Origin: Candidatus Omnitrophota bacterium
GTDB taxonomy: Bacteria > Omnitrophota > Gorgyraeia > 2-01-FULL-45-10
Direction: 5' to 3'
NCBI GenBank assembly: GCA_017993955.1
Contig: JAGOLR010000003.1
Coordinates: forward strand, 6,878-70,877
DNA length: 64,000 nucleotides
Shown here: positions 3,586 to 38,660 of the stretch, one piece after another
How the letters are laid out: every line of letters begins with the position of its first letter
How positions within the stretch are numbered: the first letter of the stretch is position 1
Translations under genes and position numbers: made by a program
Notes under the pieces: generated by a model
Told to the model about the DNA's origin: nothing
The model's input: only the letters and a program-made list of their open reading frames with translations
The model's database searches: none

Positions 3586-4518
3586 ATGGGACACTATTTA
3601 GTTACCGGCGGCGCCGGGTTTATAGGTTCGAATATCGTTGAAGAGCTGGTAAGACGCGGCAAGAAAGTCCGTGTCCTGGATAATTTTATAACCGGCAAGA
3701 TGGAAAATATAAAGCCATTTCTTAATAAGATAGAGTTGGTAAAGGGGGATATAAGGGACCGAAGCACCCTCAGAAGGGCCTTTAAGGGTATCGACTATGT
3801 CATTCACCAGGCGGCCTTAAGGTCTGTGCCAAAGTCAGTCGACGATCCATTTACTACAAATGATATAAATGTCGCCGGCACTTTGAATGTACTCTACGAA
3901 GCCAAGATGGCCAAAGTGAAGAGGGTGGTGTATGCATCATCAAGCTCTGCCTACGGCGACGCAAAACATTTTCCGCAGCGGGAGACCGACACCCCGGAAC
4001 CGATATCCCCGTATGGAGTTTCGAAGCTTGCAGCCGAACACTATTGCGTTACCTTCGCAAAAACCTTCGGTCTTGAAACGGTCTCTCTGCGTTATTTCAA
4101 TGTATTCGGACCGCGCCAGAATCCGGAGTCGAAATATTCCGCAGTTATACCCATCTTTATATTTAATATGATAAGGGGGGAGTCACCGGTAGTCGATTGG
4201 GACGGTAAACAGTCCAGGGATTTCACATATGTCGCCAATGTCGTGGAGGCGAATATCAGGTCTTGCACCGCTAAAGGCGTTTCCGGAGAGGTCTTTAATG
4301 TGGCCTGCGGCACGACGACTTCGGTGAATGATATAGTAAGACAACTGAACAGGCTTCTCGGGAAAAAGATTAAGCCCGTCTTTGCGCTAAAACGTCACGG
4401 CGATGTGAGGAAGACATACGCGAGCGTTTCAAAGATGAGGAAACTTCTTGGAATAAAAAAACTGGTAGGTTTTAATGAGGGCCTTGAGCGTACGCTCGAA
4501 TGGTTTCTGGAGAAATGA
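3586..4518 (+). CDS. NAD-dependent sugar epimerase, WbpP/TviC-like (UDP-GlcNAc(A) 4-epimerase family)
   Basis: '[18 protein letters not shown]...[13 protein letters not shown]' and the YxxxK motif ('[11 protein letters not shown]') are present. It is paired with a TviB/WbpA-like dehydrogenase immediately upstream. Confidence 0.75.
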
Positions 4519-5450
4519 AAAAACGAGTGCTGATTACCGGCGGCGCCGGATTTATCGGATCGCATTTATGCGACCTGTTCTTAGGCAAGGGATACAGCGT
4601 AATCTGCGTCGATAACCTGATCACGGGTAAGATGGCGAATATAAGCCATCTGATTCAAGATAAAAATTTCGATTTTGTTAAACACAATGTATCCGAACAT
4701 ATCACAGTGAAGGGGAGAATAGATTACGTTCTCCATTTCGCATCCCCCGCAAGCCCCATAGATTACCTTAAATACCCGATACCTACGCTTAAAGTCGGTT
4801 CGCTGGGGACGCATAATGCCCTGGGCCTGGCAAAGGCGAAAAAGGCCGTCTTCCTTTTGGCATCTACAAGTGAAGTTTACGGCGATCCTCTTGTTAACCC
4901 CCAGCCTGAGTCATATTGGGGAAACGTGAATCCCGTCGGGCCTCGCGGCGTATATGACGAGGCGAAGAGGTTTGCCGAAGCCATGACTATGGCCTATCAC
5001 CGCTATCACGGGCTTGATTGCAAAATAGTCAGGATATTTAATACATATGGGCCGCGAATGCGCGAAAACGATGGCCGCGCCATCCCGAATTTTATCAGCC
5101 AGGCGCTTAGCGGAAAGCCTATCACTGTTTACGGCGATGGCTCACAGACGAGAAGCTTTTGTTATGTTTCGGATCTTGTCGACGGGCTTTATAGGCTTCT
5201 TATGTCACGTGAAAATGATCCGGTAAATATCGGGAATCCTAACGAGATGACGCTCCTCGAGCTTGCGAATTTGATAATTAAACTAACTGGTTCGAGAAGT
5301 AAGATAGTTTATAAAAAATTACCTGTGGACGATCCAAAGGTAAGACGTCCGAATATATATAAGGCAAAAAAAGAGCTGGGTTGGAGACCGGGGGTAGGTC
5401 TCAAACAAGGGCTGATAAGAACGATATCCTATTTTAAGGAGCTGAAATAA
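4515..5450 (+). CDS. UDP-glucuronate decarboxylase (UDP-xylose synthase, UXS/ArnA-decarboxylase family)
   Basis: There is near-collinear similarity to UXS1: '[17 protein letters not shown]', '[10 protein letters not shown]', '[11 protein letters not shown]', '[10 protein letters not shown]', '[10 protein letters not shown]'. The start is taken at the ATG overlapping the upstream stop (ATGA). Confidence 0.9.
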
Positions 5451-6566
5451 GTGCATATACCATTATTAGACCTCAAGGCGCAGTACGCAACTATAAAAAA
5501 TGAAGTCGAAGTTGCGATTAAGAATGTCGTGGAGAACCAGGATTTTATTCTGGGAGAAGAGGTAAAGAATTTGGAGAGGGAGGTTGCGGTATATTGCGGC
5601 ACAAAATATGGCGTTGGAGTAGCTTCGGGTACCGATGCGCTCATACTTGCTCTTAGAGCACTGGATGTGGGTCCCGGAGATGAAGTGGTAACGACCCCTT
5701 TTACATTCTTTGCTACCGCTGAATCTATATCGATTGTCGGCGCTAAGCCGGTATTTGTGGATATAGATCCCAAGACTTATAACATAAACGCAGATTTAAT
5801 AGAAAAAAGTATAACAAAAAAGACGAAAGCCATAATCCCGGTCCATTTATACGGTCAATGTGCCGAGATGGATCCCATAATTAATATAGCCAAGAAATAC
5901 AACCTTAAAATCATCGAAGATGCGGCTCAAGCCATAGGGGCGGCTTATAAAGGCAGAAAGGCCGGTTCGATAGGCGATATCGGAGCGCTCAGTTTTTTCC
6001 CGAGCAAGAACCTTGGCGGTTTTGGTGACGGGGGGATGGTAGTTACCGATGATGGGAAAATTGCCGATCGCGTAAGGACATTGCGTGTTCATGGCAGCTC
6101 GGTACGGTATATTCATTCCGAAATAGGAATGAATTCCCGGCTAGATAATCTCCAGGCTGCGATTTTGAGGATTAAGTTAAAGCACCTTGATAAATGGTTG
6201 GGTGGAAGGAGACAATTGGCATCGTTTTATAAGGAAAAATTTACGAAACTTCCTATCGAGTGTCCAGGTGTTCCGGATTATAGTATTCATACATATCACC
6301 AATACACTCTTAGGGTTTGCGATGGGGTTCCTGGAACAAAAGAAAAGCTGACAAGATTTTTACAAGACGGCGGAATAGAGGCAAGAACGTATTATCCCAT
6401 ACCTCTTCACCTTCAGGACTGTTATAAGCCTTTGGGGTACAAAACGGGGGACATGAATGAATCGGAAAGCGCTTCAAAGGAAGTCTTTTCTATTCCGATT
6501 TTTCCAGAGATATCTATAGCTCAAAGAGACTATATAGTTGACAGGATGGGAAGATTCTTTAAATGA
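5451..6566 (+). CDS. DegT/DnrJ/EryC1/StrS family PLP-dependent sugar aminotransferase (WbpE-like); GTG start
   Basis: 'LLDLKAQYATIKNEVEVAI...GVASGTDALILALRAL' is present. The PLP-Lys region is 'SFFPSKNLGGFGDGG'. Confidence 0.85.
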   Translation: MHIPLLDLKAQYATIKNEVEVAIKNVVENQDFILGEEVKNLEREVAVYCGTKYGVGVASGTDALILALRALDVGPGDEVVTTPFTFFATAESISIVGAKPVFVDIDPKTYNINADLIEKSITKKTKAIIPVHLYGQCAEMDPIINIAKKYNLKIIEDAAQAIGAAYKGRKAGSIGDIGALSFFPSKNLGGFGDGGMVVTDDGKIADRVRTLRVHGSSVRYIHSEIGMNSRLDNLQAAILRIKLKHLDKWLGGRRQLASFYKEKFTKLPIECPGVPDYSIHTYHQYTLRVCDGVPGTKEKLTRFLQDGGIEARTYYPIPLHLQDCYKPLGYKTGDMNESESASKEVFSIPIFPEISIAQRDYIVDRMGRFFK

Positions 6567-6579
6567 AAAAACGGGAGCT

Positions 6580-7614
6580 ATGAGTATGGTAACTCTTGGA
6601 CAAATCGGAGTTGGAGTATGGGGTAAAAACCATTTGCGTAATTACTCTATGATGAACGAATGCAGGGTCAAGATTTGTTGCGACAAGAATAAAAAAGTTT
6701 TAGATATGGTCAAGTCGGATTATAAAGGTGAGATACGAACTACCTGCGATCCGGAAGATATATTTAATGATCCTCAAATCGATGGCGTTGTGATTGCGAC
6801 TCTTCCAGACACTCACGCAGCGTTGGCCATAAAGGCTATGAACAGCGGAAAACATGTATTTATAGAAAAACCTCTTGCTATGAGCACCGCTGAGGGGGTC
6901 CGGATAAAGAAAGCCGCTGAAAAAAGCAAAAAAATATGCATGGTTGGTCATATTCTCCTTTATCACCCCGCGGTTTTAGCGTTAAAAAAATATATAAATA
7001 ACGGATACTTGGGAGATATCCTTTATATATACTCATCTAGGGTCAATCTCGGGCAGGTGCGCAAAGAAGAGAACGCTTTATGGAGCCTCACCTCACACGA
7101 TATTTCTGTAGTTCTTTATCTTTTAGGTAAGTTCCCTGAAAGTGTTTCAGCCGTGGGCGCTTCCTATTTAAGAAAAAACATTGATGATGTGGTTTTTGTA
7201 AATCTTTTTTTTGCTAACAATAAAATTGCTCATATACATGCCAGTTGGTTGGATCCGCATAAAATACGTCAGTTTACAGTTGTGGGGTCTAAGAAGATGG
7301 CAGTTTTTAACGATATGGAAGCGTCCGAAAAACTGAAGATATATGATAAGGGCTTTGATAAGATCATGGATAAAAATTCTTATGAGTCATTTCTTGCTAT
7401 ACGTAGCGGCGACGTCTTATCTCCTAAGATAGATATTGAAGAGCCACTTAAACGGGAATGCATGTATTTCCTGAAATGTATTAATGATAATCGTCAGCCT
7501 CTTACTAATGTTAACAACGGAATAGAAGTGCTGAAAATATTGGAAGCTGCTCAAAAATCGCTCGATAGTGGCGGAAGAAATATTGCACTGAGACAAAGCC
7601 CCAGGTGCAGATGA
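6580..7614 (+). CDS. Gfo/Idh/MocA family NAD-dependent oxidoreductase (WbpB-like UDP-sugar 3-dehydrogenase). The start is uncertain: ATG at 6580 or 6586, or TTG at 6538
   Basis: 'IGVGVWGKNHL' Rossmann motif and 'HVFIEKPLAMSTAEG' are present. A GGGAG Shine-Dalgarno sits at 6573-6577. Confidence 0.8.
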   Translation: MSMVTLGQIGVGVWGKNHLRNYSMMNECRVKICCDKNKKVLDMVKSDYKGEIRTTCDPEDIFNDPQIDGVVIATLPDTHAALAIKAMNSGKHVFIEKPLAMSTAEGVRIKKAAEKSKKICMVGHILLYHPAVLALKKYINNGYLGDILYIYSSRVNLGQVRKEENALWSLTSHDISVVLYLLGKFPESVSAVGASYLRKNIDDVVFVNLFFANNKIAHIHASWLDPHKIRQFTVVGSKKMAVFNDMEASEKLKIYDKGFDKIMDKNSYESFLAIRSGDVLSPKIDIEEPLKRECMYFLKCINDNRQPLTNVNNGIEVLKILEAAQKSLDSGGRNIALRQSPRCR

Positions 7615-8189: not shown

Positions 8190-8252
8190 GTGCCATCTCT
8201 TCAAAAATCACTCATCTTTCCAAAAATATCCTTAAGCGCAGGTACAATTATA

Positions 8253-8281
8253 TTGACTCATCGGTCTTTCTTTGCTACCAT
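8253..8281 (+). promoter_or_regulatory. candidate sigma70 promoter: TTGACT-N17-TACCAT
   Basis: TTGACT (8253-8258), a 17-nt spacer, and TACCAT (8276-8281). It lies in a 112-nt non-coding gap about 20 nt upstream of the MarR-EPS regulator ATG. Confidence 0.45.
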
Positions 8282-8301
8282 ATGTTCAATTAGTGAACAC
8301 A

Positions 8302-10575: not shown

Positions 10576-10578
10576 ATT

Positions 10579-12476: not shown

Positions 12477-12481
12477 ATGAC

Positions 12482-13603
12482 ATGAAAAAGATTTTATTCG
12501 TTGTAGTGCATCTAAATTACGGAGGGGCTGAGGTCGGTCTTCTGACGATATTAAAGAGCATTAATAAAGATTTATTTGATTGCAGGGTTGTTTGCATTGA
12601 AAAGAAAGGTCCTGTCGGCGAGGCTATCGAGGCGCATGGCTTACAAGTGACGTATCTGAACGATAATGCTCGTTTATATAATATAGGCCTTTTTTTTAAG
12701 ATCCTGCGTATTCTTAAAAAAGAGAGGCCCGACGTACTTCATACTTCCTTATTTTATGCGAACTTTTTTGGCAGGGTAGCGGCGTTGTTTTGCAGACCTC
12801 CTGTCATACTGTCGGAAGAGAGAAGCATGTATACCGAAAAACGTTTTTATCACGTTATTATCGATCGTATTCTATCAAAGATAACGGATAGGATAATAGT
12901 ATGTTCGCAATCGGTGCTTGAGTTTACAGCTAACCAGGAAAAGATAGATAAAACCAAGTTCTGCCTTATATATAACTCTGTCGATGCGGGTAGATTTCCG
13001 GCTTCTGAAAATACCAGTGCCCTGAGGGAGAAATATGGTTTGCCAATAGAAGGATATATTGTTGGTTCTGTCGGATCTTTGATATCCAAAAAAGGTCACG
13101 AGGTACTCATAGAGGCTGCTGCTATCCTCAGTAAAGATATTACCGATCTTAAGGTCATTATCGTCGGAGAGGGCGGGAGAAAAGATGATCTGGTCGCTCT
13201 CGCGTCAAAACTTGGCCTTGGGAAGCGCGTGGTGTTCATGGGGCCGCGTGATGATGTGCCGCAGATGATGAAGATGATGGATATTTTTGTGCTTCCGTCA
13301 TTTCAGGAAGGTTTTCCGAGAACTGTCATTGAAGCCATGTATACAGAGATTCCTGTTGTAGCGACAAATATAAGCGGCATACCCGAGATAATATCCGATG
13401 GCGATAACGGAATACTTATACCAGCAGGAGATGCCAACGCTATAGCCCAAAAATGTCTTATGCTGTACCGAAACCCCGGCCTTCGTAAAAGCATAGGTAT
13501 CAATGCGAAGAAGAAAGTGGAGTCGGGGTATATGCCGCAAGATTACTCATGCCGGCTGGAAGGATTGTACTCCGAATGCTTAAAGGAGAAGGCGCGTGCG
13601 TAA
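12482..13603 (+). CDS. glycosyltransferase family 4
   Basis: 'KILFVVVHLNYGGAE' and the C-terminal 'PSFQEGFPRTVIEAMYTEIPVVATNISGIPEII'. Confidence 0.8.
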   Translation: MKKILFVVVHLNYGGAEVGLLTILKSINKDLFDCRVVCIEKKGPVGEAIEAHGLQVTYLNDNARLYNIGLFFKILRILKKERPDVLHTSLFYANFFGRVAALFCRPPVILSEERSMYTEKRFYHVIIDRILSKITDRIIVCSQSVLEFTANQEKIDKTKFCLIYNSVDAGRFPASENTSALREKYGLPIEGYIVGSVGSLISKKGHEVLIEAAAILSKDITDLKVIIVGEGGRKDDLVALASKLGLGKRVVFMGPRDDVPQMMKMMDIFVLPSFQEGFPRTVIEAMYTEIPVVATNISGIPEIISDGDNGILIPAGDANAIAQKCLMLYRNPGLRKSIGINAKKKVESGYMPQDYSCRLEGLYSECLKEKARA

Positions 13604-14660
13604 AATAGTTACCATAGTAGGTGCAAGACCGCAATTTATCAAGATGCCGCTTGTTTCAAAAGCTTTAAAATCTTTGGGTATCAAAGAGATAGTAATTCAT
13701 ACCGGACAACATTATGATAAAAATATGTCGTGTTTATTTTTTGAAGAACTCGGCCTTCGAAAACCTGACTACAACCTGAGAGTGAAGAATGGACCGAGTT
13801 ATTTGCAGCTGGCAGATATGTTGTTCGGATTAGGAAGGGTTCTTGCAAAGGAGCGCCCAAGCCTTGTGCTTCTATATGGGGACACTAATTCGACACTGGC
13901 CGGGGCCATAGCCGCAGTCAAGGCAGGCATAAGGATAGCGCACATAGAAGCAGGTCTAAGAAGTTTTAACGCAGATATGCCTGAAGAAATTAATAGAGTT
14001 CTCACTGATAGTGTCTCCAGTATATTCTTTTGCCCTACGCGTACCGCTTTGAATAATCTAAAAAAAGAAGGCAAAATAAAGAATGCCTACCTTGTTGGTG
14101 ATGTAATGTTCGATTCTATAAAATACTTTAGCAGTAAGTTAAAAAAACCTGCGACAAGGGGCAGATATATACTTTGCACTGTCCACAGAGCTGAAAATAC
14201 CGATGATCCTTGTAGATTGACAGAAATATTTTATGCATTGGGCAAGGCAGGTGAGAAGGTTGTGATGCCGCTTCATCCGCGAACTGCAAAATATATCAAA
14301 AAATACCGTATAGGCATAGAATCCAATATAGAGATTACTTTGCCCGCGAGTTACTTTGAGATGCTGAGCTTAGAAAGAAATGCGGATATTATAGTAACGG
14401 ATTCCGGCGGAGTGCAGAAAGAGGCGTATATATTTGGCATACCCTGCGTTACTTTGCGTAATGAAACAGAATGGGTTGAAACAGTGTCGAGAGGTAATAA
14501 TTTTTTGGCCGGAGCAGATAGTGGCAAGATATTGGCTATGTTGCGAAAAGCGGCTGGTATTAAAAGAAATCGCGCTGCGTCGAAATTTTACGGAGATGGC
14601 TTTGCGCACAATCGTATAGCCAGGATAATAAACAAGAGTTTGATGAATGATGAAAACTAA
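13596..14660 (+). CDS. UDP-N-acetylglucosamine 2-epimerase (non-hydrolysing), WecB/WbpI-like; GTG start
   Basis: 'IVTIVGARPQFIKMPLVSKAL...IHTGQHYD' and 'DSGGVQKEA'. Confidence 0.85.
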   Translation: MRKIVTIVGARPQFIKMPLVSKALKSLGIKEIVIHTGQHYDKNMSCLFFEELGLRKPDYNLRVKNGPSYLQLADMLFGLGRVLAKERPSLVLLYGDTNSTLAGAIAAVKAGIRIAHIEAGLRSFNADMPEEINRVLTDSVSSIFFCPTRTALNNLKKEGKIKNAYLVGDVMFDSIKYFSSKLKKPATRGRYILCTVHRAENTDDPCRLTEIFYALGKAGEKVVMPLHPRTAKYIKKYRIGIESNIEITLPASYFEMLSLERNADIIVTDSGGVQKEAYIFGIPCVTLRNETEWVETVSRGNNFLAGADSGKILAMLRKAAGIKRNRAASKFYGDGFAHNRIARIINKSLMNDEN

Positions 14661-15621
14661 AAAGATATTGATAACAGGCGTTGCCGGTATGATCGGTTCA
14701 CACCTATCCGACCTTCTTCTTGAGAAAGGATTTAAGGTAGTGGGTATGGATGATCTTTCTGTGGGAAGGCTGGAAAATATACAGCATAATTTGCGCGATA
14801 TAAACTTTCGGTTTGTTAAGGGCAGCATCCTAGATACCAAAGCTCTTGAGTCAGCTGCGAGAAACGTGGATACCATAGTTCATCTGGCAGCTTCAAAGAA
14901 GATAGGCGAAGCTGGCGACGCTTTTAAAACGCTTATCATCAATGCGGATGGTACAAGGAATGTTCTTGAGGCTGCCAAAGAAAAACGGTTGAAGGTCATA
15001 TATGCCTCAACTTCCGATGTGTACGGAGTTTCTAAGGATATACCGTTCAGGGAGGATGGGGACCTGGTTATAGGATGCCCTACCGCGAAAAGATGGTCAT
15101 ATGCCATATCGAAAGCATACGGCGAACAGATGGCATTTGCTTATTATAAAGAATTTGGTGTCCCAATAGTTGTTATAAGATATTTTGGAGGCTTTAGCCC
15201 CAGAGCGAGCTTTAGTGCAAGCGGCGGGCATATACCGCTATTTATTGACGCGATACTTAATGACAAGACTATTGTTATACATGGAGATGGCGGGCAGACG
15301 AGATCGATGGGGTATGTGAGCGACCTCGTTGATGGTACAATACGGGCATTGGCGAACCCCGATGCAATTGGCGAAATATTTAATATAGGTAATGATGAGG
15401 AAGTAAGCGTTATAGATTCTGCCTATATGATCCATAAGATCGCAAGTACCGGTAAAAAAATTAAAATAAGGTTTGTACCGCAAAAAAAAATCTTTGGTAC
15501 CTATGAAGATATCAAACGCCGAGTGCCATCGCTGAGCAAAGCCAGGAAACTTCTTGGTTACAGACCCATGGTGAACTTAGCTGAGGGCATAAGGATAACT
15601 ATTGAGGCGCGCAGGAGATGA
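14647..15621 (+). CDS. NAD-dependent epimerase/dehydratase (extended SDR), specificity unknown
   Basis: 'ILITGVAGMIGSHLSDLLLEKGFKVVGMDDLSVG' and 'YAISKAYGEQM' (YxxxK). Confidence 0.75.
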   Translation: MMKTKKILITGVAGMIGSHLSDLLLEKGFKVVGMDDLSVGRLENIQHNLRDINFRFVKGSILDTKALESAARNVDTIVHLAASKKIGEAGDAFKTLIINADGTRNVLEAAKEKRLKVIYASTSDVYGVSKDIPFREDGDLVIGCPTAKRWSYAISKAYGEQMAFAYYKEFGVPIVVIRYFGGFSPRASFSASGGHIPLFIDAILNDKTIVIHGDGGQTRSMGYVSDLVDGTIRALANPDAIGEIFNIGNDEEVSVIDSAYMIHKIASTGKKIKIRFVPQKKIFGTYEDIKRRVPSLSKARKLLGYRPMVNLAEGIRITIEARRR

Positions 15622-16997
15622 CGAAACAGAAAACCGTTTTGCTTATGCATCCACGACCCATATATCCACCTATGGCAGCATTGTATCTAGCCGGAGCGCT
15701 CGAGAGAGCCGGAGTGCGGTGTGAGATTTTGCCATCAAATTGCTCAAAAGACGAGTTGGCCAATGTGGTAGAATCCATAAAACCTGATGTCGTGGCGATG
15801 TCCGTTATAACTTCTCAGGACATACCATTTTTTGTCGGTCATGCAAAGTTTGTGAAGAATAGTTATTCTTCCATTCCAGTCGTGTGGGGAGGCATACACC
15901 CATCTTTGAATGCCGAACAGTGCGCGAGCGAGGATTTTATAGATTATGTGATAACCGGGCATGGCGAAGCCGCGCTTCCTGAATTTATGCAAAACCTCGG
16001 AGCATTGCGGTGCTCGGGTAAGATAATAAGAGGTTCGAGCGTTAAGGATATGGATGGCTATTCGCCGATGTGGGAAAAGATAGATATATCGAAGTTCGTA
16101 TTTCCGGAAGAATATTCCGTGCATAGCCCGGATAAAATAGCTTACGATGCAAACGGTCATAAAAAGAAAAATAATATATTTTATTATTTGATTACAAGCA
16201 GGGGGTGCGTTTATAATTGCACATTTTGCTCGGAACCGCTGGGCGTGATAAACAGGACCAGTGATGGCAGAAGGAATTGGAGTGCTCATTCTTTTGAATG
16301 GGTTAAGCGGGAGGTTACCTATATAAAAAATGAGCTTGGTAAAAAAAATATAAAACTCGACGGCATAGGCATATGGGATGATATGTTCTGGGTTGATATG
16401 GAAAGGTCCTATAGGATACTTGATTTACTTAAGTCGGAGAACCTTGGTTATTTTATAGAAGCCAGGGCAGACCAGCTTTTAAGAGATGACGCAGCGCTGC
16501 TTCGCAAACTGGGAGATACCGGGTGTATACAGGTATTCGTTGGGGCAGAGTCTGCCGACCAGACGACATTAAATTATCTGCGCAAAGGAACCAAATTTAC
16601 GGATTATGTTAAACTGATCGAGTTGGGCGAGAAATGCCATGTTGCCGTAAGGTTGTCCTTAATAATAGGGTTTCCGGGCGAGACAGACGATAGCGTTAAT
16701 AAGACTCTGGATTTTTCGGATTGGGTTTCGGCTAAAAAAGGCTATGCTTCGATAAGCGGCCCAAAAATATTTACTCCATACCCAGGCACTGTTGAGTTTG
16801 ACCGGGCAGTGGCTAGAGGACTTGTTATACCCAAGGATACCGTAGGATGGGGTGAGATACATAGGAAATCCGAAAGATATATCGCTCTATACCCCTGGCT
16901 TACGCAAAATCTTTTGCCCGATACCATAAAAAGGCTTGAGAAGCTTTTAGCTCGGTGCGGAGATTCAGTAAAAACAAACGAACCTGTTTTTAAATAA
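15618..16997 (+). CDS. B12-binding domain radical SAM protein (class B radical SAM)
   Basis: The N-terminal cobalamin-binding-type domain is followed by 'ITSRGCVYNCTFCSEP' (CxxxCxxC). Length is 459 aa. Confidence 0.75.
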   Translation: MTKQKTVLLMHPRPIYPPMAALYLAGALERAGVRCEILPSNCSKDELANVVESIKPDVVAMSVITSQDIPFFVGHAKFVKNSYSSIPVVWGGIHPSLNAEQCASEDFIDYVITGHGEAALPEFMQNLGALRCSGKIIRGSSVKDMDGYSPMWEKIDISKFVFPEEYSVHSPDKIAYDANGHKKKNNIFYYLITSRGCVYNCTFCSEPLGVINRTSDGRRNWSAHSFEWVKREVTYIKNELGKKNIKLDGIGIWDDMFWVDMERSYRILDLLKSENLGYFIEARADQLLRDDAALLRKLGDTGCIQVFVGAESADQTTLNYLRKGTKFTDYVKLIELGEKCHVAVRLSLIIGFPGETDDSVNKTLDFSDWVSAKKGYASISGPKIFTPYPGTVEFDRAVARGLVIPKDTVGWGEIHRKSERYIALYPWLTQNLLPDTIKRLEKLLARCGDSVKTNEPVFK

Positions 16998-17000
16998 TTT

Positions 17001-17618
17001 ATGAATAAATTGCTGGCAAATCTAGCATTAAAATTGCAGAAAGAGCAGGGTTTTGCTTTAAAGACAATCCTTGCTGCGAATGAGATGTATATACGCTTCT
17101 ACGCGTTATTTCTTCGGCGAAATATAAAAGTTGAAAGGATCGAGATAAAATTTTCGGCAAACCACTTAGAATTGGTAATGAGACGCCTTGATGCGAGCGA
17201 TATCCCCCGACTTGAATATTTTTTCAAGCATTCCATAAATACTAAAAGTGCAGCTTTTATTATGCCGCACAGGACCGATCGGGTGTCTTTACAATACCTG
17301 TTTGGTAAAACATCCCACATTCCTATGGGGATATTCTGCGGTGATGCTCTTGTGGGCTATGCGTTGATAAGGCTCTTATTCCCGGATAGAGCCTCTTATT
17401 CTATATTCGTAGCTGACAATTGGCAGGGTAAGGGGATAGGCACTGCGGCCCTGGAAATGCAGCTTGGCTTGATAAAAGATCTGAAATTTAAGCCGTATTC
17501 TGCAGTATGCAAGAATAATGCGAGATCGATAGGGATGCTAAAGAAGTTGAATATAGAATTTACCCAAGATTTAGGGGATTGTTTTGAGGTCAAAGATATG
17601 GGTTGTAGAAGGAGATGA
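17001..17618 (+). CDS. GNAT-family N-acetyltransferase
   Basis: 'FVADNWQGKGIGTAALEMQLGLIKDL' shows an acetyl-CoA-binding motif. Confidence 0.6.
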   Translation: MNKLLANLALKLQKEQGFALKTILAANEMYIRFYALFLRRNIKVERIEIKFSANHLELVMRRLDASDIPRLEYFFKHSINTKSAAFIMPHRTDRVSLQYLFGKTSHIPMGIFCGDALVGYALIRLLFPDRASYSIFVADNWQGKGIGTAALEMQLGLIKDLKFKPYSAVCKNNARSIGMLKKLNIEFTQDLGDCFEVKDMGCRRR

Positions 17619-18598
17619 CGACACCATCCGCTAAGCTTAGTTGTTCCGTATCGGTCGATGTTGACTCTTTCGATTCTCTTTGGCGGTTCTATTGCGGTAA
17701 AAGAGCCAACCTTTGCGGACCAGACCCGGTATACAGATATGCGGTGCCCAGGTTTCTGAAACTTTTCGACGAGTGTAATCTTAAAGCGACTTTTTTCGTT
17801 GTTGCGAATGACTTTGTTGGCTCAAATCAAAACAGGGAGATTTTAAGGGATATTATTTCGAGAGGGCATGAAGTCGCTAACCATAGTTTGAACCATGAAT
17901 TTGCATTCTCATCGCTTTCTCGGCATGATAAAGAAGCAGATATTATAAATTCTACGGATATTATAAAGGATGCCTGCGGTGTTTTGCCTCGCGGTTTTAG
18001 AATACCAGGTTATGACATAGATGAGGTAACAATAGATATTTTGGACAAAAATGGGTATCTTTACGATTCATCGCTCTACAAATTCCCTTTGTACCCTTTT
18101 TTGCGTAGACTGGCTTATATGAAGATCAAGGGTGTTTTAAAAAATCCGATATTTAATAATCTAACCGAAGAAACTTACCGGATTTTGCAGTCACCCATTA
18201 TGCCGTATCACCCCGTTTACGGTAAGTTCTGGAGGGTAGGCAAAACAGAGAGAAAAATATTGGAAATGCCTGTTAGCGTAATCCCATTATTGTGTTTACC
18301 ATTTAATAGTACTTTTTTATTTTTGTCTGGAAGGCCTTTGTTTGAATTGGGCTTATGGATGACCGAGAAGATGGGTATAGATTTGAATTATAATTTTCAT
18401 TCAACAGATATGCTTTCATCGATCAACGATGATGTGCATGTGAAGCATCCCGGTATCGGATTGGACTATAAGAAAAAGTTCTTTATATTCAAGAACATGA
18501 TAAGCAGGATCAGACGAGCGTACAATTTTATTACTTTAGAAGAGTTAGCGAAAAAATCCTATCATGAATGTGGAAAAGCGCATGGAAGTAACAAATAA
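17615..18598 (+). CDS. polysaccharide deacetylase (NodB-homology, CE4 family)
   Basis: 'KATFFVVANDF...GHEVANHSLNHEF' matches NodB motifs. Confidence 0.75.
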   Translation: MTTPSAKLSCSVSVDVDSFDSLWRFYCGKRANLCGPDPVYRYAVPRFLKLFDECNLKATFFVVANDFVGSNQNREILRDIISRGHEVANHSLNHEFAFSSLSRHDKEADIINSTDIIKDACGVLPRGFRIPGYDIDEVTIDILDKNGYLYDSSLYKFPLYPFLRRLAYMKIKGVLKNPIFNNLTEETYRILQSPIMPYHPVYGKFWRVGKTERKILEMPVSVIPLLCLPFNSTFLFLSGRPLFELGLWMTEKMGIDLNYNFHSTDMLSSINDDVHVKHPGIGLDYKKKFFIFKNMISRIRRAYNFITLEELAKKSYHECGKAHGSNK

Positions 18599-19286
18599 AG
18601 AGATAAGGCTGCGAAGGTTTTATGGGGATGTAGCCCGTGTGCAGAACAGGGCTATTCTCGGTTTTATGACGGGTGTGCGCGTTCTGGATGTCGGTTGCGG
18701 CTATGGATGTCTTGTAGATCAGATAAAAAGAGAAAAAACAGGTATCGAGGTAATTGGTATTGATGTCGATCCGGAATCAATAAAAATTGCCAAAAGTATG
18801 TATGGTATCGATGTGAGGCCGGTATCTGTTTGTAATATGAATTTCCCGGACGGTTATTTCGATACGGTTATATTGAGAGAGGCTGTCCATCATCTCTATC
18901 ATGAAGCAGATTTTGCAAGGGCAATGTCTGAAATAGGGAGAGTTTGCAAAAAAGAGCTTATAATATTCGATCCCAACCCAAATTGGGTCGTAAAGTTATG
19001 CAGAAAGATAATAAGACACAGCGATCCGGAAGCGGACCCGACCTCTATTATGAACGCTATCGAAAAAAACGGATTCAAGGTCACCTCTTGTATATGGAGG
19101 GACGTAGTTGCGTTCCCTGCGAGCGGAGGTTTTGTGGGGAGAGAAATCGTGCCAAATAACAGTTTTATCAAAAAGTACATTTTGTTGATAGATGAATGGC
19201 TTAATCTTATATGTAGGAAGCTGCGTATACAGCGATATATCTGTTGGCGTTATATCATATATGCTACTAAAAAACATCACATATAG
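18564..19286 (+). CDS. class I SAM-dependent methyltransferase (the start may be the ATG at 18582)
   Basis: 'VLDVGCGYGCLVDQI' and 'FDTVILREAVHHL'. Confidence 0.7.
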   Translation: MNVEKRMEVTNKEIRLRRFYGDVARVQNRAILGFMTGVRVLDVGCGYGCLVDQIKREKTGIEVIGIDVDPESIKIAKSMYGIDVRPVSVCNMNFPDGYFDTVILREAVHHLYHEADFARAMSEIGRVCKKELIIFDPNPNWVVKLCRKIIRHSDPEADPTSIMNAIEKNGFKVTSCIWRDVVAFPASGGFVGREIVPNNSFIKKYILLIDEWLNLICRKLRIQRYICWRYIIYATKKHHI

Positions 19287-19292
19287 CCCGAG

Positions 19293-20072
19293 GTGCCCTT
19301 GGTATTTTTTGTAATACCTGCCTATAACGAGGAAGAAAACATATCACATCTTCTAGGATCCGTAGAAAAAAAGATGTGCGAGATAGGTCTGCCCTACAAG
19401 ATAGTTATAATAGATGACGGGAGCAAAGACGGCACCAGTTCTCTTCTCCAGGGATATAGTGCAGATTTCCCGGTCGTGCTATTAAAGCATGAAGTTAACA
19501 GGAATGTAGGACAAGTATTCCGGACCGGTTTCCGTTATGTCATAGATCATGCTAAGACCGGGGACGTGGTCATAACAAAAGAATCGGACAATACAGGCGA
19601 TCTTAACCTGTTGCCAGAAATGCTCGATAGGCTCAATAACGGGTCAGATATTGTTCTGGCATCGTGCTATGCCAAAGGCGGGAAGGTGCTTGGCGCCACT
19701 ATTGATAGAGTCATCATGAGCAGGGTGGTTAATTCGATGATGAGGCTCCTATTTCCTGTCAAGGGCGCCAGTACTTACAGTTCATTTTATCGGGCTCATA
19801 AAGTAGATGTATTGAAGAAAGCAATGTCAGTGTATGGTGAAAAACTTATCGAGGAATCCGGATTTACATGCATGGCGGAAATGCTGATAAAGTTTAGCAG
19901 GCTCTCTATGAATATTTCCGAGATACCGATGATTCTCCGATGTGATACAAGGAAAGGCAAGAGCAAGATGAATAAAACCAGAACAATCCTTGCCTATTTC
20001 CGTCTCATATTTAAGGAGTTAAAGATGCTGAATCTGCAGCAGATGAGCGAAGAAAATATGTCAGGATATTAA
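19293..20072 (+). CDS. GT2 polyprenol-phosphate glycosyltransferase (DPM1/ArnC/GtrB-like); GTG start
   Basis: 'FFVIPAYNEEENISHLLGSV...KIVIIDDGSKDGTS'. It has a short single-domain GT2 architecture and is followed by GT-C-like membrane proteins. Confidence 0.7.
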   Translation: MPLVFFVIPAYNEEENISHLLGSVEKKMCEIGLPYKIVIIDDGSKDGTSSLLQGYSADFPVVLLKHEVNRNVGQVFRTGFRYVIDHAKTGDVVITKESDNTGDLNLLPEMLDRLNNGSDIVLASCYAKGGKVLGATIDRVIMSRVVNSMMRLLFPVKGASTYSSFYRAHKVDVLKKAMSVYGEKLIEESGFTCMAEMLIKFSRLSMNISEIPMILRCDTRKGKSKMNKTRTILAYFRLIFKELKMLNLQQMSEENMSGY

Positions 20073-20091
20073 TAAGAGGCGGCGGATTTCT

Positions 20092-21609: not shown

Positions 21610-22999
21610 TGTAGTTGCTATAATAATTTCAATATTGCTGGCAGCCTTTGTAACAATATTTTTATCGGCTGCCGTATGGATCATGGGTGTGTGGGCTCTT
21701 TGTATATTCCTAATATTTCAGGTTGTGAAGTCATTTGAGGATAGAAAGATAGTATTTTTTACCATCATATGGGCCCTAATCGTAAGGTTCATATTGGTGT
21801 GCCTTTACGGAATCGTTTGCCATAAGATGCATACTCCGGACGTGTTGGGTGATGCGTGCGCTTATAGCTCATATGGCATATATCTGGCAGAGATATTTAC
21901 AGGAAAACCATATCCCAGATTTCCGGTCGTGTCTATACTATGGAATTCGCTGATGGGTGATAGTCCAAAAATGGGGGAGTATCAGGTGAATTGCATAGCT
22001 TATTTGCAGGGCATCGCTTTTTCCGTATTCGGATATTCAACTCTGACTATAAAACTTTTTAATTCGTTATTAGGGGTTATGACTGGTTTTGTAGCGTACA
22101 TTTTTTTACGTAAAAAAATAGGCACTCGCGTAGCAGCCATTTCACTTTTCTTGATCCTCTTCTATCCCAGCATTTTAGTATGGTCTATAACAGGCCTTAA
22201 AGATACGCTGCTTATGTTTTTATCGCTATTGTCGATGACGGCGATGCCGGGCTTGTTTACACTTGGGAAAAAGCTAAAAGAAAAGATAACGCCATGCGTT
22301 ATTATACTACTTTGCGCAATTGTATCGGGTCTTACCAGAAAAGGGATGATGTATTTCTATCTTTTGGTTTTGACAATGACTTATATTTTTATTATGCTTG
22401 CCGAAAGAAAAATTTTAAAGAAAACTTTTGTAGCGCTTTTTTTATTCGCATCGGTTTTATTCCTTACCAATTTAGGTAATGTGAGAAGCGGATTTGCGAG
22501 TATTGCAAATAAGGTTATAGTTTACCAAAAAGGACAGAGCACATCTAAAGGAAAGACCTTTTACAAGGTCTACCCCGATAGGTTCTACAAATTAGTTGGC
22601 CCCAACAAAAGCTTTATGCCGGAGGGACTGTCCTTAGGAGAGGTCGCCGTATCTTTCTTTAAAGGAACGACATATTTTTTCTTTTCCCCATTTCTTACTC
22701 ACTTAAAAATAAGCCGACATTTAATATTCGTTTATGTTCAGGCGCTTTTCTCCTTATTTATCTTTCCGCTCATGATTATCGGAGTGAATTGGTCGCTTCG
22801 CCATCAAATGCGTTCTTTTCTTCCGATGTTCATATTCATGACGTTATCCTGGGCTATCGGAGGATTGATTTCGGGAAATATAGGCACAGCTTTTAGGCAT
22901 AGAGATATGATAATGCCGGCCTATCTTATATTTGCTGTTATAGGATTTTGTAAATTATTTAGGCTGAAAGACGATTTGGAAGACAAGGGCTGGAAATAG
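21599..22999 (+). CDS. polytopic membrane protein, putative GT-C-like glycosyltransferase/polymerase
   Basis: Multiple TM helices are predicted. It is second in a row of three large membrane proteins. Confidence 0.4.
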   Translation: MKNSVVAIIISILLAAFVTIFLSAAVWIMGVWALCIFLIFQVVKSFEDRKIVFFTIIWALIVRFILVCLYGIVCHKMHTPDVLGDACAYSSYGIYLAEIFTGKPYPRFPVVSILWNSLMGDSPKMGEYQVNCIAYLQGIAFSVFGYSTLTIKLFNSLLGVMTGFVAYIFLRKKIGTRVAAISLFLILFYPSILVWSITGLKDTLLMFLSLLSMTAMPGLFTLGKKLKEKITPCVIILLCAIVSGLTRKGMMYFYLLVLTMTYIFIMLAERKILKKTFVALFLFASVLFLTNLGNVRSGFASIANKVIVYQKGQSTSKGKTFYKVYPDRFYKLVGPNKSFMPEGLSLGEVAVSFFKGTTYFFFSPFLTHLKISRHLIFVYVQALFSLFIFPLMIIGVNWSLRHQMRSFLPMFIFMTLSWAIGGLISGNIGTAFRHRDMIMPAYLIFAVIGFCKLFRLKDDLEDKGWK

Positions 23000-24672
23000 T
23001 GCCGAACCAAAAAAATGCTACAACTATAGTCTTGTTTATATTGCTGTTAAATGCAATTCTCACTGTTTATGGTATTAATTGGGGTTTGCCTGATAGGTGG
23101 AATGTCGATGAACAGGTTGCGAAATCTCTAAGACTTATAGCGTCGCGCTCTATATTTACAGTCGTAGACACTGCCCATCCTCAATTATATAACATTGTCT
23201 TGGCGTTATTTATGTTGCCGTATCTTGCAATCCTTAAGATTGCAGGTTATCCGTTGGTGATCATACAATCTGCCGCTTCGGTTTCCTGGATAAATCTTGC
23301 TGCAGCCAGGCCAGATTTTGCGGTGAATATATATCTAATAGGCAGGTCTGCTTCTGTTCTTTTTAACCTGGCAAGCATAATATTGCTTTATCAAATCGCT
23401 AAAATCGCATACGGGAAAAAAGAAATAGCGTTATTTTCTATATTGATAATGTCTTCGAGCATGGGGTTTGTAGAGATGGGGCACTTTGCCAAGGGGACTT
23501 CGTTGTTATTTTTGCTATTATTAAGTGTTGTGTTTTTTATTTTTAAGTCTCTCAAAACAGATTTTAAAAGGAACTATTATATAGCCGCCTTTCTGGCTGG
23601 AAGTTGCGTCGCGACCCAGGCGGATGGTGCATTGTCAGTGTTTTATCTGGCTGCCGGTTTATTAATGCATATTCATGATAAGAAAACCGGTGTAAAAGAA
23701 GTGTCCGGCTACCTTTTGATAAGTTTTTTATTGTTTATAACCGGGATAATCTTATTATGGCCTGCTCTATGGGTCAATTTAAATAAATATTTCATCGGCT
23801 CATTGGCTGCTTATTCTACAAGTCATCCAATCAGCCTGGCTATATTGAAAGAAAAAATAATATCGAACCTAGCGCAGCTTGTTTATATATTTACTCCGTC
23901 TATTGCTTTATTTGTATTTGCAGGTAGTGTCAGCAGTATTTTTACATGGAGGTCCTGCTATCCGTACACGCCTATTTTTTTATTTGTACTTATACCGTAC
24001 TTTTTGATGGCGATATTTTATTTCACCGCTTTCCCCGGATCATCGACAAAATTTTTAATACACGCTGTACCCGCGCTTTCAATATGGGGCGGCGCAGCTA
24101 TCTATAAATTTATTGATTTTACCGGTAGTCTTAGAATATTCAGGATCGCCGTTGTCGCAGTGATGTTTGCTTTTGCTGTGCTGTACACTGCAAAAGGGGA
24201 TGCCGTATTTGCGAAATATGATACAAGATACTCCAGTGGAAATTGGATAAAGGAGAATATTCCTGTTTCGGCATCCTTGGAGCATTTTCAAGAAATCGAT
24301 CTTTTGTTCCCATCTTCCATACTGAAGACCCATCGAGTGATATTTCATGGTAAGGATTCAAGAGATTACGATGGAAAGCGATTTTATGACTCGGAGGACA
24401 TGAGTATTATGAATAGTTATATTAACGATTTAGATCCTGACAGCGTTAAGTCAGATTATATCGTACTGGCTTCCGGAAAGGATTTTTTGATGCCGCTTTC
24501 TATGCAGTCTTCGAACGCAGACCATAATATTATCTATAGACTTCTTGAAGGTTCGCAAGGTAATTACCAACTGGTAAGAAGATTCGAATATGATGAGTCT
24601 GTATTATTTAATCCCAGACCGGCGTATACCGCGCCCGTAATTTCTATTTTTAAACGCATAGAAGAAAGGTGA
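22999..24672 (+). CDS. polytopic membrane protein, putative GT-C-fold glycosyltransferase (ArnT/PMT-like)
   Basis: N-terminal TM helices with 'GINWGLPDRWNVDEQ' in the first loop. It has a large C-terminal soluble domain (about 170 aa). Confidence 0.45.
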   Translation: MPNQKNATTIVLFILLLNAILTVYGINWGLPDRWNVDEQVAKSLRLIASRSIFTVVDTAHPQLYNIVLALFMLPYLAILKIAGYPLVIIQSAASVSWINLAAARPDFAVNIYLIGRSASVLFNLASIILLYQIAKIAYGKKEIALFSILIMSSSMGFVEMGHFAKGTSLLFLLLLSVVFFIFKSLKTDFKRNYYIAAFLAGSCVATQADGALSVFYLAAGLLMHIHDKKTGVKEVSGYLLISFLLFITGIILLWPALWVNLNKYFIGSLAAYSTSHPISLAILKEKIISNLAQLVYIFTPSIALFVFAGSVSSIFTWRSCYPYTPIFLFVLIPYFLMAIFYFTAFPGSSTKFLIHAVPALSIWGGAAIYKFIDFTGSLRIFRIAVVAVMFAFAVLYTAKGDAVFAKYDTRYSSGNWIKENIPVSASLEHFQEIDLLFPSSILKTHRVIFHGKDSRDYDGKRFYDSEDMSIMNSYINDLDPDSVKSDYIVLASGKDFLMPLSMQSSNADHNIIYRLLEGSQGNYQLVRRFEYDESVLFNPRPAYTAPVISIFKRIEER

Positions 24673-24676
24673 AAAA

Positions 24677-25780
24677 ATGATATCTGTATTCGGTTCCAGA
24701 GTCGGGAAGGAAGAAATAGAGGAGATCAGGACAAGTATAGACAGCCAATGGCTCGGTATAGGGCCAAAAACAAAAAAGTTTGAAGAAAAATTTGCTGAAC
24801 GGCTAGGCCTTCCGTCGTTTGTAATGCTCAATAGCGGTTCAAATAGTCTCTACATGGCTATCAAGGTATTGAATCTCCCCAAAGGCTCCGAAGTCATATT
24901 ACCATCATTTACCTGGATAGCATGCGCGCATGCCATAGCGCTTGCGGGATGCAGGCCTGTGTTCTGCGATGTAGATTTCGAGACTCAGAATGTTACAGCC
25001 GAAACTGTAAAGTCGTGCATAACGGATAAGACCCGCGCTGTAATGGTGGTGCATTATGCCGGCAAACCTGTCAAGATGAAGGAGATAATGGGGTTGGGGT
25101 TCCCAGTAATTGAGGATGCTGCGCATGCCGTCGACTCGATGGTGGGAGATCGGTATTGCGGTTCCATGGGGGACGTCGGAATATACAGTTTTGACGCTGT
25201 AAAAAATTTAAGCATAGGAGAAGCGGGTGGGATCACGACAAAAGATGCGCGTCTTGTCGATATGATCAAGAAGTTGAGGTATTGCGGAATAGGTAAATCC
25301 GGGTTCGAGGCTTCGACTTCAAAACAGCGCTGGTGGGAATATGACATAGTGGATTTTTTTCCCAAGATGATTCCGGACGATATTGCTTCGTCGATAGGCA
25401 TAGCGCAGCTGGCTAAGCTGGATGAGAATCAGGCTATACGGAAGAAGTATTGGAATGTTTATAAGAAAGAGCTCGGAGGTCTGTCGTGGCTTGAGCTTCC
25501 TGAAGATGCAGACGATGGCGAGCGGCATTCGTATTTTACTTACTGTATACGGGTCAAAAATAATCGTCGCGACGCTCTCGCGCAGTATCTTTTTAAAAAT
25601 AATATATATACGACATTGAGGTTTCATCCTCTTCATATGAATCCGATATACGGTTCTGTTGCTAAACTGCCAAATAGCGAAAGATTGAATGAAGTAGCTC
25701 TCAATATACCGCTCCATCCGGGGCTGTCCGAATCAGACCTTAACTGCGTGATAGAAAAGATAAGGGATTTTAATGGCTGA
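24677..25780 (+). CDS. DegT/DnrJ/EryC1/StrS PLP-dependent sugar aminotransferase (ArnB-like)
   Basis: '[31 protein letters not shown]' and '[16 protein letters not shown]' (PLP-Lys). Confidence 0.8.
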
Positions 25781-27859: not shown

Positions 27860-27866
27860 TGAAACT

Positions 27867-28379: not shown

Positions 28380-28380
28380 A

Positions 28381-32548: not shown

Positions 32549-32549
32549 T

Positions 32550-36433: not shown

Positions 36434-36434
36434 A

Positions 36435-37106: not shown

Positions 37107-37110
37107 AGCC

Positions 37111-38639: not shown

Positions 38640-38660
38640 CGCAAGTGGAAAATCCTGTTT

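Follow-up and report, generated by a model that had tools for sequence, protein, structure and literature searches.

A single lipid-linked sugar donor can serve several membrane-embedded glycosyltransferases of the GT-C class. In mycobacteria, Emb and Aft enzymes share decaprenyl-phosphate-arabinose, and PimE and Mpt share the polyprenyl-phosphate-mannose made by a helix-free GT2 of the Ppm1/PpgS type, whilst the eukaryotic ALG3, ALG9 and ALG12 all draw on the dolichyl-phosphate-mannose (Dol-P-Man) produced by DPM1. Three-component periplasmic glycosylation is also an established type of system (PMC11127046, PMC8035078), as with the polyprenyl-phosphoribose synthase, MATE and GT136 proteins of Citrobacter (PMC11127046), and the Pgf operon of Streptococcus mutans encodes a GT-A enzyme (PgfS), the epimerase PgfE and a pair of GT-C proteins, PgfM1 and PgfM2 (PMC12041528). 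A comparable set of genes is found in the 64,000-nucleotide stretch of DNA analysed here, hereafter called the window, which comes from a Candidatus Omnitrophota bacterium and contains a short GT2 gene followed directly by three genes for polytopic membrane proteins, termed GT-C1, GT-C2 and GT-C3. The ultra-small bacteria of the Omnitrophota are uncultured and in part dependent on hosts; the literature on their glycans gives only generic mentions of lipopolysaccharide (LPS) and capsule glycosyltransferases in variable regions.

The four proteins are best explained as a module for glycosylation outside the cytoplasm, which draws on a sugar linked to a lipid phosphate and is placed inside a surface-glycan island, an interpretation that is judged probable, if well short of secure. 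The short GT2 gene (19293..20072, + strand, 259 aa) encodes a predicted polyprenyl-phosphate monosaccharide synthase of the Dpm1/GtrB/ArnC type, and is followed on the same strand by GT-C1 (20092..21609, 505 aa), GT-C2 (21599..22999, 466 aa) and GT-C3 (22999..24672, 557 aa), and then by a gene for a sugar aminotransferase of the DegT family. The gaps between these five genes, of +19, -11, -1 and +4 nucleotides, are operon-like. An earlier note, prepared from the DNA alone, had described a short DPM1/ArnC/GtrB-type GT2 at 19293 and, right after it, three polytopic membrane proteins of 466-557 aa, and this description is upheld, the open reading frames (ORFs) being tightly packed and all on the + strand. 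The same note treated everything from 4515 to 25780 as one module, a span that is too generous as it takes in about 15 genes outside the module.

The GT2 scores 66 bits against PF00535, the GT-A catalytic domain, and its closest solved relative is the P. furiosus Dol-P-Man synthase (PfDPMS, 5mlz), with 78.5 bits over residues 4-244, followed by GtrB (sll0501) and then ArnC. The aligned region corresponds to residues 25-248 of 5mlz and extends past the catalytic core into the C-terminal G-x-S-K segment. The protein has the motifs PxYNE and DDGSxDxT, with a nucleotide-binding stretch that reads I-I-D-D-G-S-K-D-G-T, and its E97-S98-D99 aligns with the D-A-D of PfDPMS, a DxD-type metal site. The interface-helix motif GFxxxxEhLIK is found as GFTCMAEMLIKF, aligned with GFKILMEILIK of 5mlz, and further along G-K-S224-K225 (GKSK) aligns with GESK. 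Among the orthologues D99, S224 and K225 are invariant. The polypeptide ends at residue 259 without a transmembrane (TM) helix, no 19-residue hydrophobicity window reaching 1.6, and the C-terminal TM helices of its solved relatives (two in GtrB and ArnC, four in PfDPMS) are thus absent. Human DPM1 and PpgS are helix-free synthases, and the existence of this subclass means that the lack of TM helices does not disqualify the protein from the wider GT2 family; in this feature the GT2 is like the DPM1/PpgS subclass and unlike GtrB or ArnC. In NCBIfam the ArnC model gives 53.7 bits against a cut-off of 529, with PgfS second at 42 bits against a cut-off of 500. The homology to Dpm1-like enzymes indicates that the GT2 probably loads one sugar onto polyprenyl phosphate. 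A processive synthase, which the earlier note had named as the identity on which its proposal would fall, is ruled out, as by homology the protein is a short Dpm1-like enzyme.

The three membrane proteins differ in their outline. Kyte-Doolittle analysis gives about 9 hydrophobic segments for GT-C1, about 12 for GT-C2 and about 9 for GT-C3. GT-C1 ends in a C-terminal soluble domain of ~115 aa and GT-C3 has an ArnT-like architecture with a C-terminal alpha/beta domain of ~140 aa, whilst GT-C2 has no soluble domain. All match the PMT_2 family (PF13231), for which the gathering score is 26.1 bits, with 25.2 bits for GT-C1, 24.6 for GT-C2 and 32.5 for GT-C3. The family was also precomputed on 31 of 44 GT-C1 homologues and is matched by 38 of 44 sampled GT-C2 relatives (best E 3e-15). 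The Pfam families for Wzy, O-antigen ligase and transporters, which the earlier note had regarded as fatal to a GT-C assignment, match neither the three proteins nor any of the 44 GT-C2 relatives. An NCBIfam scan returned nothing for any of the three, hence no ArnT equivalog, and comparison with the sequences in the PDB, by single sequence and by profile, gave nothing useful except a match of one query (A3) to Pmt1 with E 0.0012.

Conserved acidic residues are found where a GT-C enzyme would be expected to have them. In GT-C1, D35-E36 is invariant in 22 sequences and lies ~10 residues after the first TM helix, with R24 also invariant; in GT-C3, D37-E38 is invariant in 10 sequences, again ~10 residues past the first TM helix, and is accompanied by invariant W28, G29, P31, R33 and W34. 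These are the Asp-Glu motifs that the earlier note had reported for two of the proteins. GT-C2 has two extra N-terminal helices, which place D81 and D85 after its third helix, and D85 and R433 are invariant in its 44 relatives. Based on an N-terminal lysine and the positive-inside rule, the acidic residues are likely to face the periplasm, as the earlier note had placed the two Asp-Glu motifs.

Structure prediction with AlphaFold2 gives an all-helical membrane bundle for both GT-C3 (predicted local distance difference test score, pLDDT, 83; predicted TM-score, pTM, 0.86) and GT-C2 (pLDDT 80, pTM 0.81). In these models a helix formed by residues 34-49 follows that of residues 4-29 in GT-C3, and a helix of residues 84-101 follows that of residues 49-76 in GT-C2, the acidic residues being in each case at the start of the later helix. 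When GT-C3 was compared with the PDB by Foldseek, almost all of the top 43 matches were GT-C or related GT-C-like folds, including ALG12 (E 1e-9) and ArnT (E 7e-8, TM-score about 0.5), together with ALG9, AglB/STT3, Pmt1, Pmt4, DPY19 and Emb/Aft. The best matches of GT-C2 were to ArnT (5ezm and 5f15, E 1.4e-3, TM-score 0.44-0.47) and then to AglB. Membership of the GT-C/PMT_2 superfamily is thus indicated for all three proteins by Pfam and by profile alignment with hhalign, and for GT-C2 and GT-C3 also by the models. From the fold and the motifs, the three proteins would act with lipid-linked donors at the outer face of the membrane.

The structural matches also raise the question of whether at least one of the GT-Cs handles an undecaprenyl-diphosphate-linked oligosaccharide, as an oligosaccharyltransferase, ligase or polymerase, and so fills the role of Wzy, WaaL or PglB in the island. 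The contig as read encodes no Wzy, WaaL, PglB or initiating transferase, a PglK/MsbA-like exporter is present, AglB and STT3 rank high in the fold comparisons, an STT3 N-terminal model is matched by 4 of the 44 GT-C2 relatives and WaaL is found at rank 4 for GT-C2. Against this, no STT3-type C-terminal domain is present: GT-C2 is without any soluble part, and inspection of the GT-C3 sequence by eye showed no WWDxG motif. The WaaL match is poor (TM-score 0.27 only) and Wzy_C is found in none of the 44 relatives, so that GT-C2 as the missing Wzy or WaaL is rejected, on the Pfam profile of its relatives together with the WaaL score. The adjacency of GT2 and GT-C is moreover conserved across loci, and an oligosaccharide-handling role is considered improbable.

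The earlier note had called the three GT-Cs paralogous. In pairwise BLASTP none of the three pairs shows any similarity, so recent paralogy is rejected. At the level of family profiles, GT-C1 and GT-C3 align in hhalign with 94% probability over 404 columns, with their DE motifs in register, and GT-C1 and GT-C2 align with 74% probability, but GT-C2 and GT-C3 show no relation even here. The proteins therefore represent three old and distinct GT-C families rather than tandem paralogues. The number of relatives depends strongly on how it is obtained. A word-indexed protein search returned 10, 44 and 10 relatives for the three GT-Cs (GT-C1 having 44 and GT-C2 having 10), whereas an exhaustive hidden Markov model search with GT-C2 found 9105 representative clusters, which makes it a large family. 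The contrast for GT-C2 between 10 and 9105 shows that rarity in the indexed search is unreliable for such divergent membrane proteins, and the idea that these families are rare, re-tested exhaustively on GT-C2, was rejected as an index artefact.

The gene boundaries of two of the proteins differ from the public record. The NCBI entries call GT-C1 as 478 aa and GT-C3 as 528 aa, which cuts off the first TM helix and drops the invariant residues R24 of GT-C1 and W28 and G29 of GT-C3. The longer ORFs, starting with TTG at 20092 and GTG at 22999, suit the families better.

Related loci were traced through homologues of GT-C1 and GT-C3 on six other contigs (L003, L005, L007, L010, L011 and L013), four of them named Omnitrophota metagenome-assembled genomes (MAGs), and were mapped by tblastn with the window proteins, with flanks of 10 kb. 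A short GT2 gene adjoins a GT-C gene in L005, L007, L010, L011 and L013, and in the last four of these GT-C1 comes directly after the GT2. All three GT-C families occur together in L007, L010 and L013. In L010, L011 and L013 the order is a WecB-like 2-epimerase, a short-chain dehydrogenase/reductase (SDR) of the UDP-glucuronate decarboxylase (UXS) clade, a variable set made up of a GNAT acetyltransferase, a deacetylase and a methyltransferase, and then the short GT2 and GT-C1, and these are the loci in which the fetched flank reaches the position of the 2-epimerase and SDR. The ORFs from the 2-epimerase to GT-C1 overlap in L011, where the SDR overlaps the GT2 ORF. Downstream in the same three loci lie GT-C3-like and DegT genes and, except in L010, a gene for a flavin adenine dinucleotide (FAD)-dependent oxidoreductase, with a GT-C2-like gene present in L010 and L013. 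Adjacency of GT2 and GT-C is thus the rule in five of the six loci, and the three GT-C families travel together. A profile scan of representative genomes for GT-C1 found 2 loci, both in Omnitrophota, with a single peptide pattern that does not amount to a census.

The closest parallel is L007, whose gene order is nearly the same as that of window positions 15618-33251. The GNAT, deacetylase and methyltransferase genes upstream of the GT2 are syntenic in L007 and L010. A DegT gene follows GT-C3 in L007, its product 72% identical to that in the window. Between its GT-C genes L007 has two extras, a second GT-C2-like gene and an additional gene for a B12-binding radical S-adenosylmethionine (SAM) enzyme; B12 radical SAM genes are likewise found between GT-C genes in L011 and L013. 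The FAD-oxidoreductase-like gene is present in L003, L005, L007, L011 and L013, that is, in every related locus except L010. In L011 and L013 it is the immediate neighbour of the GT-C3-type gene, and in L007 it is one gene removed from it. L003 and L005 have GT-C3, GT-C2-like and further PMT_2 proteins together with a formyltransferase, GT4c/d and the FAD oxidoreductase, and L005 also has AsnB.

The conserved neighbours point, by their sequence, to a donor sugar derived from a UDP-N-acetylhexosamine (UDP-HexNAc). A non-hydrolysing UDP-GlcNAc 2-epimerase of the WecB type (13596..14660, + strand) passes the cut-off of its model TIGR00236, with 278 bits against 210, and is a candidate for the first step towards the donor of the GT2. 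It is followed by the UXS-clade SDR (14647..15621, + strand), in which the sequence T-S-D replaces the T-S-E of decarboxylases. The best solved relative of the SDR is human UXS1, at 156 bits, followed by UDP-glucuronic acid (UDP-GlcA) 4-epimerase; the U4kpxs model scores 135 bits and that of ArnA 111 bits, and the T-S-D is kept in the L010 and L011 orthologues. In making the donor sugar, the SDR may act as an oxidase/decarboxylase or as an epimerase. A literature search for a precedent in the form of a UDP-XylNAc-type decarboxylase gave nothing usable. Next come a B12-binding radical SAM enzyme, a probable methyltransferase (15618..16997, + strand, PF02310 and PF04055), whose L007 orthologue is 74% identical and in the same position, a GNAT N-acetyltransferase (17001..17618, + strand, PF00583), a NodB-type polysaccharide deacetylase (17615..18598, + strand, PF01522 with 68 bits) and, directly upstream of the GT2, a class I SAM methyltransferase (18564..19286, + strand, PF08241). 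The best NCBIfam match of the deacetylase, which is two genes upstream of the GT2, is to the polysaccharide deacetylase of the XrtA system (65 bits, under the cut-off), and the ArnD model is absent from its NCBIfam matches. By analogy with ArnD the deacetylase may act on the lipid-linked sugar, a suggestion that is speculative.

The DegT/DnrJ/EryC1 aminotransferase that follows GT-C3 (24677..25780, + strand, 367 aa, 283 bits to PF01041) had been described in the earlier note as closest to ArnB. In fact PseC (218.5 bits) and ArnB (218.1 bits) score alike, with a WecE-like model at 211 bits, and all are under their cut-offs, PseC and ArnB by far (the ArnB cut-off being 631). The UXS of the window (4500/4515..5450, + strand, 316 aa) is, as had been claimed, a genuine UDP-glucuronate decarboxylase, with 366 bits to human UXS1 (E 1e-108, residues 7-314), the motif A-S-T-S-E-V-Y-G with its T-S-E, and Y-x-x-x-K. 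Its link to the GT2/GT-C module, part of the same claim, is unproven: the gene sits 14 kb upstream, within a block of nucleotide-sugar precursor genes, and no UXS orthologue was seen in the 10-kb flanks of the GT-C genes in the six loci, although these flanks may not reach the equivalent position.

These enzymes had suggested a pathway of the Arn (Pmr) kind, in which decarboxylation and transamination turn UDP-GlcA into an aminopentose that is N-acylated, loaded onto undecaprenyl phosphate by the GT2, deacylated by a NodB-type enzyme, flipped and transferred by a GT-C to lipid A or the core. The likeness is real in its parts. There is a genuine UXS, a second SDR of the UXS/ArnA clade beside the module and a Ugd upstream on the contig, the DegT, GNAT and NodB-type deacetylase genes are near a GT2 of the undecaprenyl-phosphate type, and GT-C2 and GT-C3 both have ArnT near the top of their structural matches. 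A Formyl_trans_N gene lies beside GT-C genes in L005 and L003, with an SDR and a DegT also in L005, and KdsB together with an LptD_N-like gene suggests that the organism has LPS. However, no window ORF contains a Formyl_trans_N domain and ArnE/F are missing. The ArnB, ArnC and ArnA models fall 3-10 times under their cut-offs, the two SDRs giving 104-111 bits with the ArnA model against a cut-off of 777, and no ArnT or ArnD matches were obtained, so that the module has no match to Arn at equivalog level. The GT2 lacks the two C-terminal TM helices of ArnC, the SDR beside it has T-S-D rather than T-S-E, and its conserved neighbour is a HexNAc 2-epimerase. UXS reduces its 4-keto intermediate to UDP-xylose, and so feeds no aminotransferase. 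Three distinct GT-Cs within a 67-kb glycan island are also unlike the layout of Arn. An Arn-like pathway is accordingly thought to be very unlikely, and whilst the part of the earlier proposal in which a polyprenol-phosphate GT2 feeds the GT-Cs is supported by homology and fold, the part that made this an aminopentose pathway to lipid A is not, given the absence of formyltransferase, ArnE/F and ArnT. A pentose or aminopentose donor is possible; the evidence does not indicate one.

The relationship to PMT proteins brings in a different kind of acceptor. In protein O-glycosylation, of the actinobacterial PMT/Ppm1 or the S. mutans Pgf style, the GT2 would supply the lipid-linked sugar and the GT-Cs would modify secreted or membrane proteins, such as pili or surface proteins, in their Ser/Thr-rich regions. 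The three proteins match PMT_2 and are named GT39 by NCBI, Pmt1, Pmt4 and DPY19 are among the structural matches of GT-C3, and among solved structures the GT2 comes closest to a Dol-P-Man synthase. The parts list of the Pgf operon is also alike, as a GT-A and an epimerase are encoded there together with two GT-Cs (PMC12041528), which is a precedent for several GT-Cs with one GT2; the earlier note had called three paralogous GT-Cs in tandem unusual. The GT-Cs of Pgf belong, however, to the YfhO type, and their targets are Ser/Thr-rich proteins from their own cluster, whereas the window contains no candidate target, all of its ORFs being enzymes or transporters, and the match of the GT2 to PgfS is far under its cut-off. 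The PMT (PF02366) and MIR domains were not detected in the three window GT-Cs, which gave PF13231 only, PF02366 being confined to a few distant homologues, and membership of GT39 is not shown. The neighbouring genes build a complex oligo- or polysaccharide, and no gene for a GDP-mannose pyrophosphorylase turned up in the island. Protein O-glycosylation is hence regarded as unlikely.

In the favoured scheme, an extracytoplasmic module within a surface-glycan island, the WecB-like 2-epimerase and the UXS-clade SDR would make a modified UDP-sugar in the cytoplasm, possibly with the help of the B12 radical SAM enzyme, the GNAT and the methyltransferase. The helix-free, Dpm1-like GT2 would then, as its homology suggests, take a single sugar from its nucleotide donor and attach it to polyprenyl (undecaprenyl) phosphate on the inner side of the membrane. 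The lipid-linked sugar would next have to be flipped, a step for which an ATP-binding cassette (ABC) exporter is the sole candidate. On the periplasmic side the three GT-Cs, of which the fold and motifs are clear, would transfer the lipid-linked sugar, probably to three different acceptor positions or linkages, and all three would use the product of this single GT2. The acceptor is most likely to be the glycan built by the Leloir glycosyltransferases of the island, be it an LPS O-antigen, a capsule or a similar surface polysaccharide, and the most likely function of the module is to decorate or extend this glycan. By analogy, such a role would resemble the addition of side chains by Gtr-type systems, or the successive steps of ALG3/9/12 and Emb/Aft.

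Several observations weigh against this scheme. Only one Dpm1-like GT2 is present for three GT-Cs, and a second short GT2 is found beside other GT-C genes in L010, L005 and L003, so that GT-C2 and GT-C3 of the window may use a donor made elsewhere. Taken individually, GT-C1 and GT-C2 are just under the Pfam gathering score, and for GT-C2 the matches by structure are weak (E 1e-3). The window encodes no GtrA, ArnE/F, Wzx or MATE flippase, and a search of both strands for small multi-TM ORFs found none, hence no flippase candidate of the GtrA or ArnE/F type. The contig as read is without an initiating phosphoglycosyltransferase, Wzy, WaaL or oligosaccharyltransferase, which leaves the acceptor pathway incomplete. 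The fused ABC exporter, similar to HepA, MsbA and PglK (49632..51434, + strand), is a candidate flippase or exporter and, in a scan of both strands for ORFs with TM segments, the sole other polytopic membrane protein of the window. In NCBIfam it scores 476 bits with the HepA-family model, 390 with MsbA and 247 with PglK, all under the cut-offs.

The module shares with GtrA/GtrB/GtrC of Shigella and Salmonella, with CsbB/GtcA/YfhO and with the Citrobacter system a synthase at the cytoplasmic face and GT-C transfer to a pre-made glycan outside, and GtrB ranks second among the solved structures that resemble the GT2. The module differs from these systems in having three GT-Cs for one GT2 and no flippase gene, and the GT2 lacks the two TM helices of GtrB. 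The GT-Cs are of the PMT_2 type, which would set them apart from GtrC, YfhO and GT136. The module also lies amid the main biosynthetic island and is not a separate cassette for modification, of the kind that phages often carry. The likeness to Emb/Aft, PimE/Mpt and the ALG enzymes is of another kind, in that one Dpm1-type synthase may feed several divergent GT-Cs at different positions, and the structural matches of GT-C3 include ALG12, ALG9 and Emb/Aft. Sequence identity to those enzymes is only 8-15%, donor sharing in the window would be by extension from them, and the host is a diderm bacterium of a candidate phylum.

The surroundings of the module were surveyed with Pfam and NCBIfam. GT-C3 is encoded identically on contig JAHZTK010000866.1 (71,687 bp) of assembly GCA_020047475.1, a MAG labelled "Candidatus Omnitrophica bacterium", and window coordinates are contig positions minus 6877. 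Every sizeable ORF of the window is on the + strand, and the scans show one continuous surface-glycan island, of ~67 kb. The island includes RmlB, RmlD, a nucleotide-sugar dehydrogenase, a TviC-like epimerase, the UXS, a group of three (DegT, a GFO oxidoreductase and a hexapeptide acetyltransferase), five Leloir glycosyltransferases of the GT4 and GT2 families, Gmd, two NeuB-like synthases, several cytidylyltransferases and the fused ABC exporter. Upstream of the window the contig encodes Ugd, RmlC, RmlA and a protein of 768 aa (contig positions 2013-4319) with a weak, OstA-like match to LptD_N/LptC. This protein and the KdsB of the island hint at the production of LPS by the organism. Exactly along the three GT-C genes (20001-24000) the AT skew becomes negative (about -0.15) and the GC content falls to about 0.38, in keeping with T-rich codons for hydrophobic residues more than with a foreign origin.

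Near the beginning of the window are the nucleotide-sugar dehydrogenase (2206-3510) and the DegT, GFO-type 3-dehydrogenase and hexapeptide acetyltransferase (within 5451-8189), the GFO-type protein scoring 178 bits with a UDP-GlcNAc 3-dehydrogenase model. Together with the 2-epimerase at 13596, we take these to resemble the WbpA/E/B/D/I route to UDP-ManNAc3NAcA. Downstream of the module are the FAD-dependent oxidoreductase (25773..27152, + strand, PF01593), which is similar to amine oxidases and PRK07208 (227 bits, under the cut-off) and has a weak N-terminal resemblance to UDP-galactopyranose mutase, and then a methyltransferase, a PseH-like GNAT, two GT4 enzymes, an AsnB-like amidotransferase and a transglutaminase-like protein (27149..33251, + strand, by Pfam and NCBIfam). 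The order of this last block is kept in L007 with 53-72% identity, the methyltransferase having no match there. The AsnB-like amidotransferase (in the 30656-33251 region) gives 649 bits with the XrtA/PEP-CTERM amidotransferase model, for which the cut-off is 817, and it and the transglutaminase-like protein are conserved with the module in L007 and L011; in L011 the transglutaminase-like gene directly follows GT-C1.

Further along, NeuB-like synthases, cytidylyltransferases and associated enzymes occupy positions 33813-46644 and 53006-54537. The two NeuB-like synthases score below both the NeuB and PseI cut-offs, one of the four cytidylyltransferase-type genes is KdsB above its cut-off (298 bits against 255), and a HAD phosphatase, a class IV aminotransferase and an HpcH-type aldolase are also encoded. 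These gene sets point to two or three separate pathways to ulosonic or nonulosonic acids. Within the first of these two stretches is a protein of 638 aa (41662-43578) without a Pfam match and with a weak match (23.5 bits) to the 'polysaccharide biosynthesis PFTS motif protein' model. The window contains seven radical SAM genes in all (15618-16997, 35081-36433, 38661-40259, 40193-41650, 46613-47461, 51471-53009 and 60719-61789). A B12-binding domain is present in four of them, a SPASM domain in two and a 4Fe-4S cluster domain in one, and such richness points to sugars being modified extensively by C-methylation or other radical chemistry.

A bolder proposal, rather unlikely as matters stand, is that the Omnitrophota have a periplasmic assembly line typical of their lineage, in which helix-free Dpm1-like synthases feed a fixed set of three ancient GT-C families that have diverged from one another, and the interleaved enzymes tailor the sugars. 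The B12 radical SAM methylases, aminotransferases, acyltransferases and the conserved FAD oxidoreductase would carry out this tailoring, possibly while the sugars are attached to the lipid, where the NodB-type deacetylase would work in the manner of ArnD. If this is true, the result would be the multi-step extracytoplasmic building of a heavily C-methylated and aminated surface glycan rather than decoration with a single side chain, and the system would be a diderm bacterial counterpart of the ALG3/9/12 steps of the endoplasmic reticulum lumen or of mycobacterial arabinan synthesis.

For the organism, the island now has predicted gene assignments, in which the GT2 takes the role of donor synthase and catalytic residues are defined for the three GT-Cs, and the gene set is conserved and can be traced across the phylum Omnitrophota. 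The gene calls of the public record for two of the GT-Cs, cut short at the N-terminus, are corrected, and the likely donor pathway is no longer placed with UXS and ArnB but with the WecB-like epimerase and UXS-clade SDR. To glycobiology at large the module adds another, uncharacterised example of glycosylation by a lipid-phosphate-linked sugar and GT-C enzymes, with no new principle. What is most worthy of note is the conserved three-family GT-C set of the Omnitrophota and the unusually rich tailoring chemistry that surrounds it.

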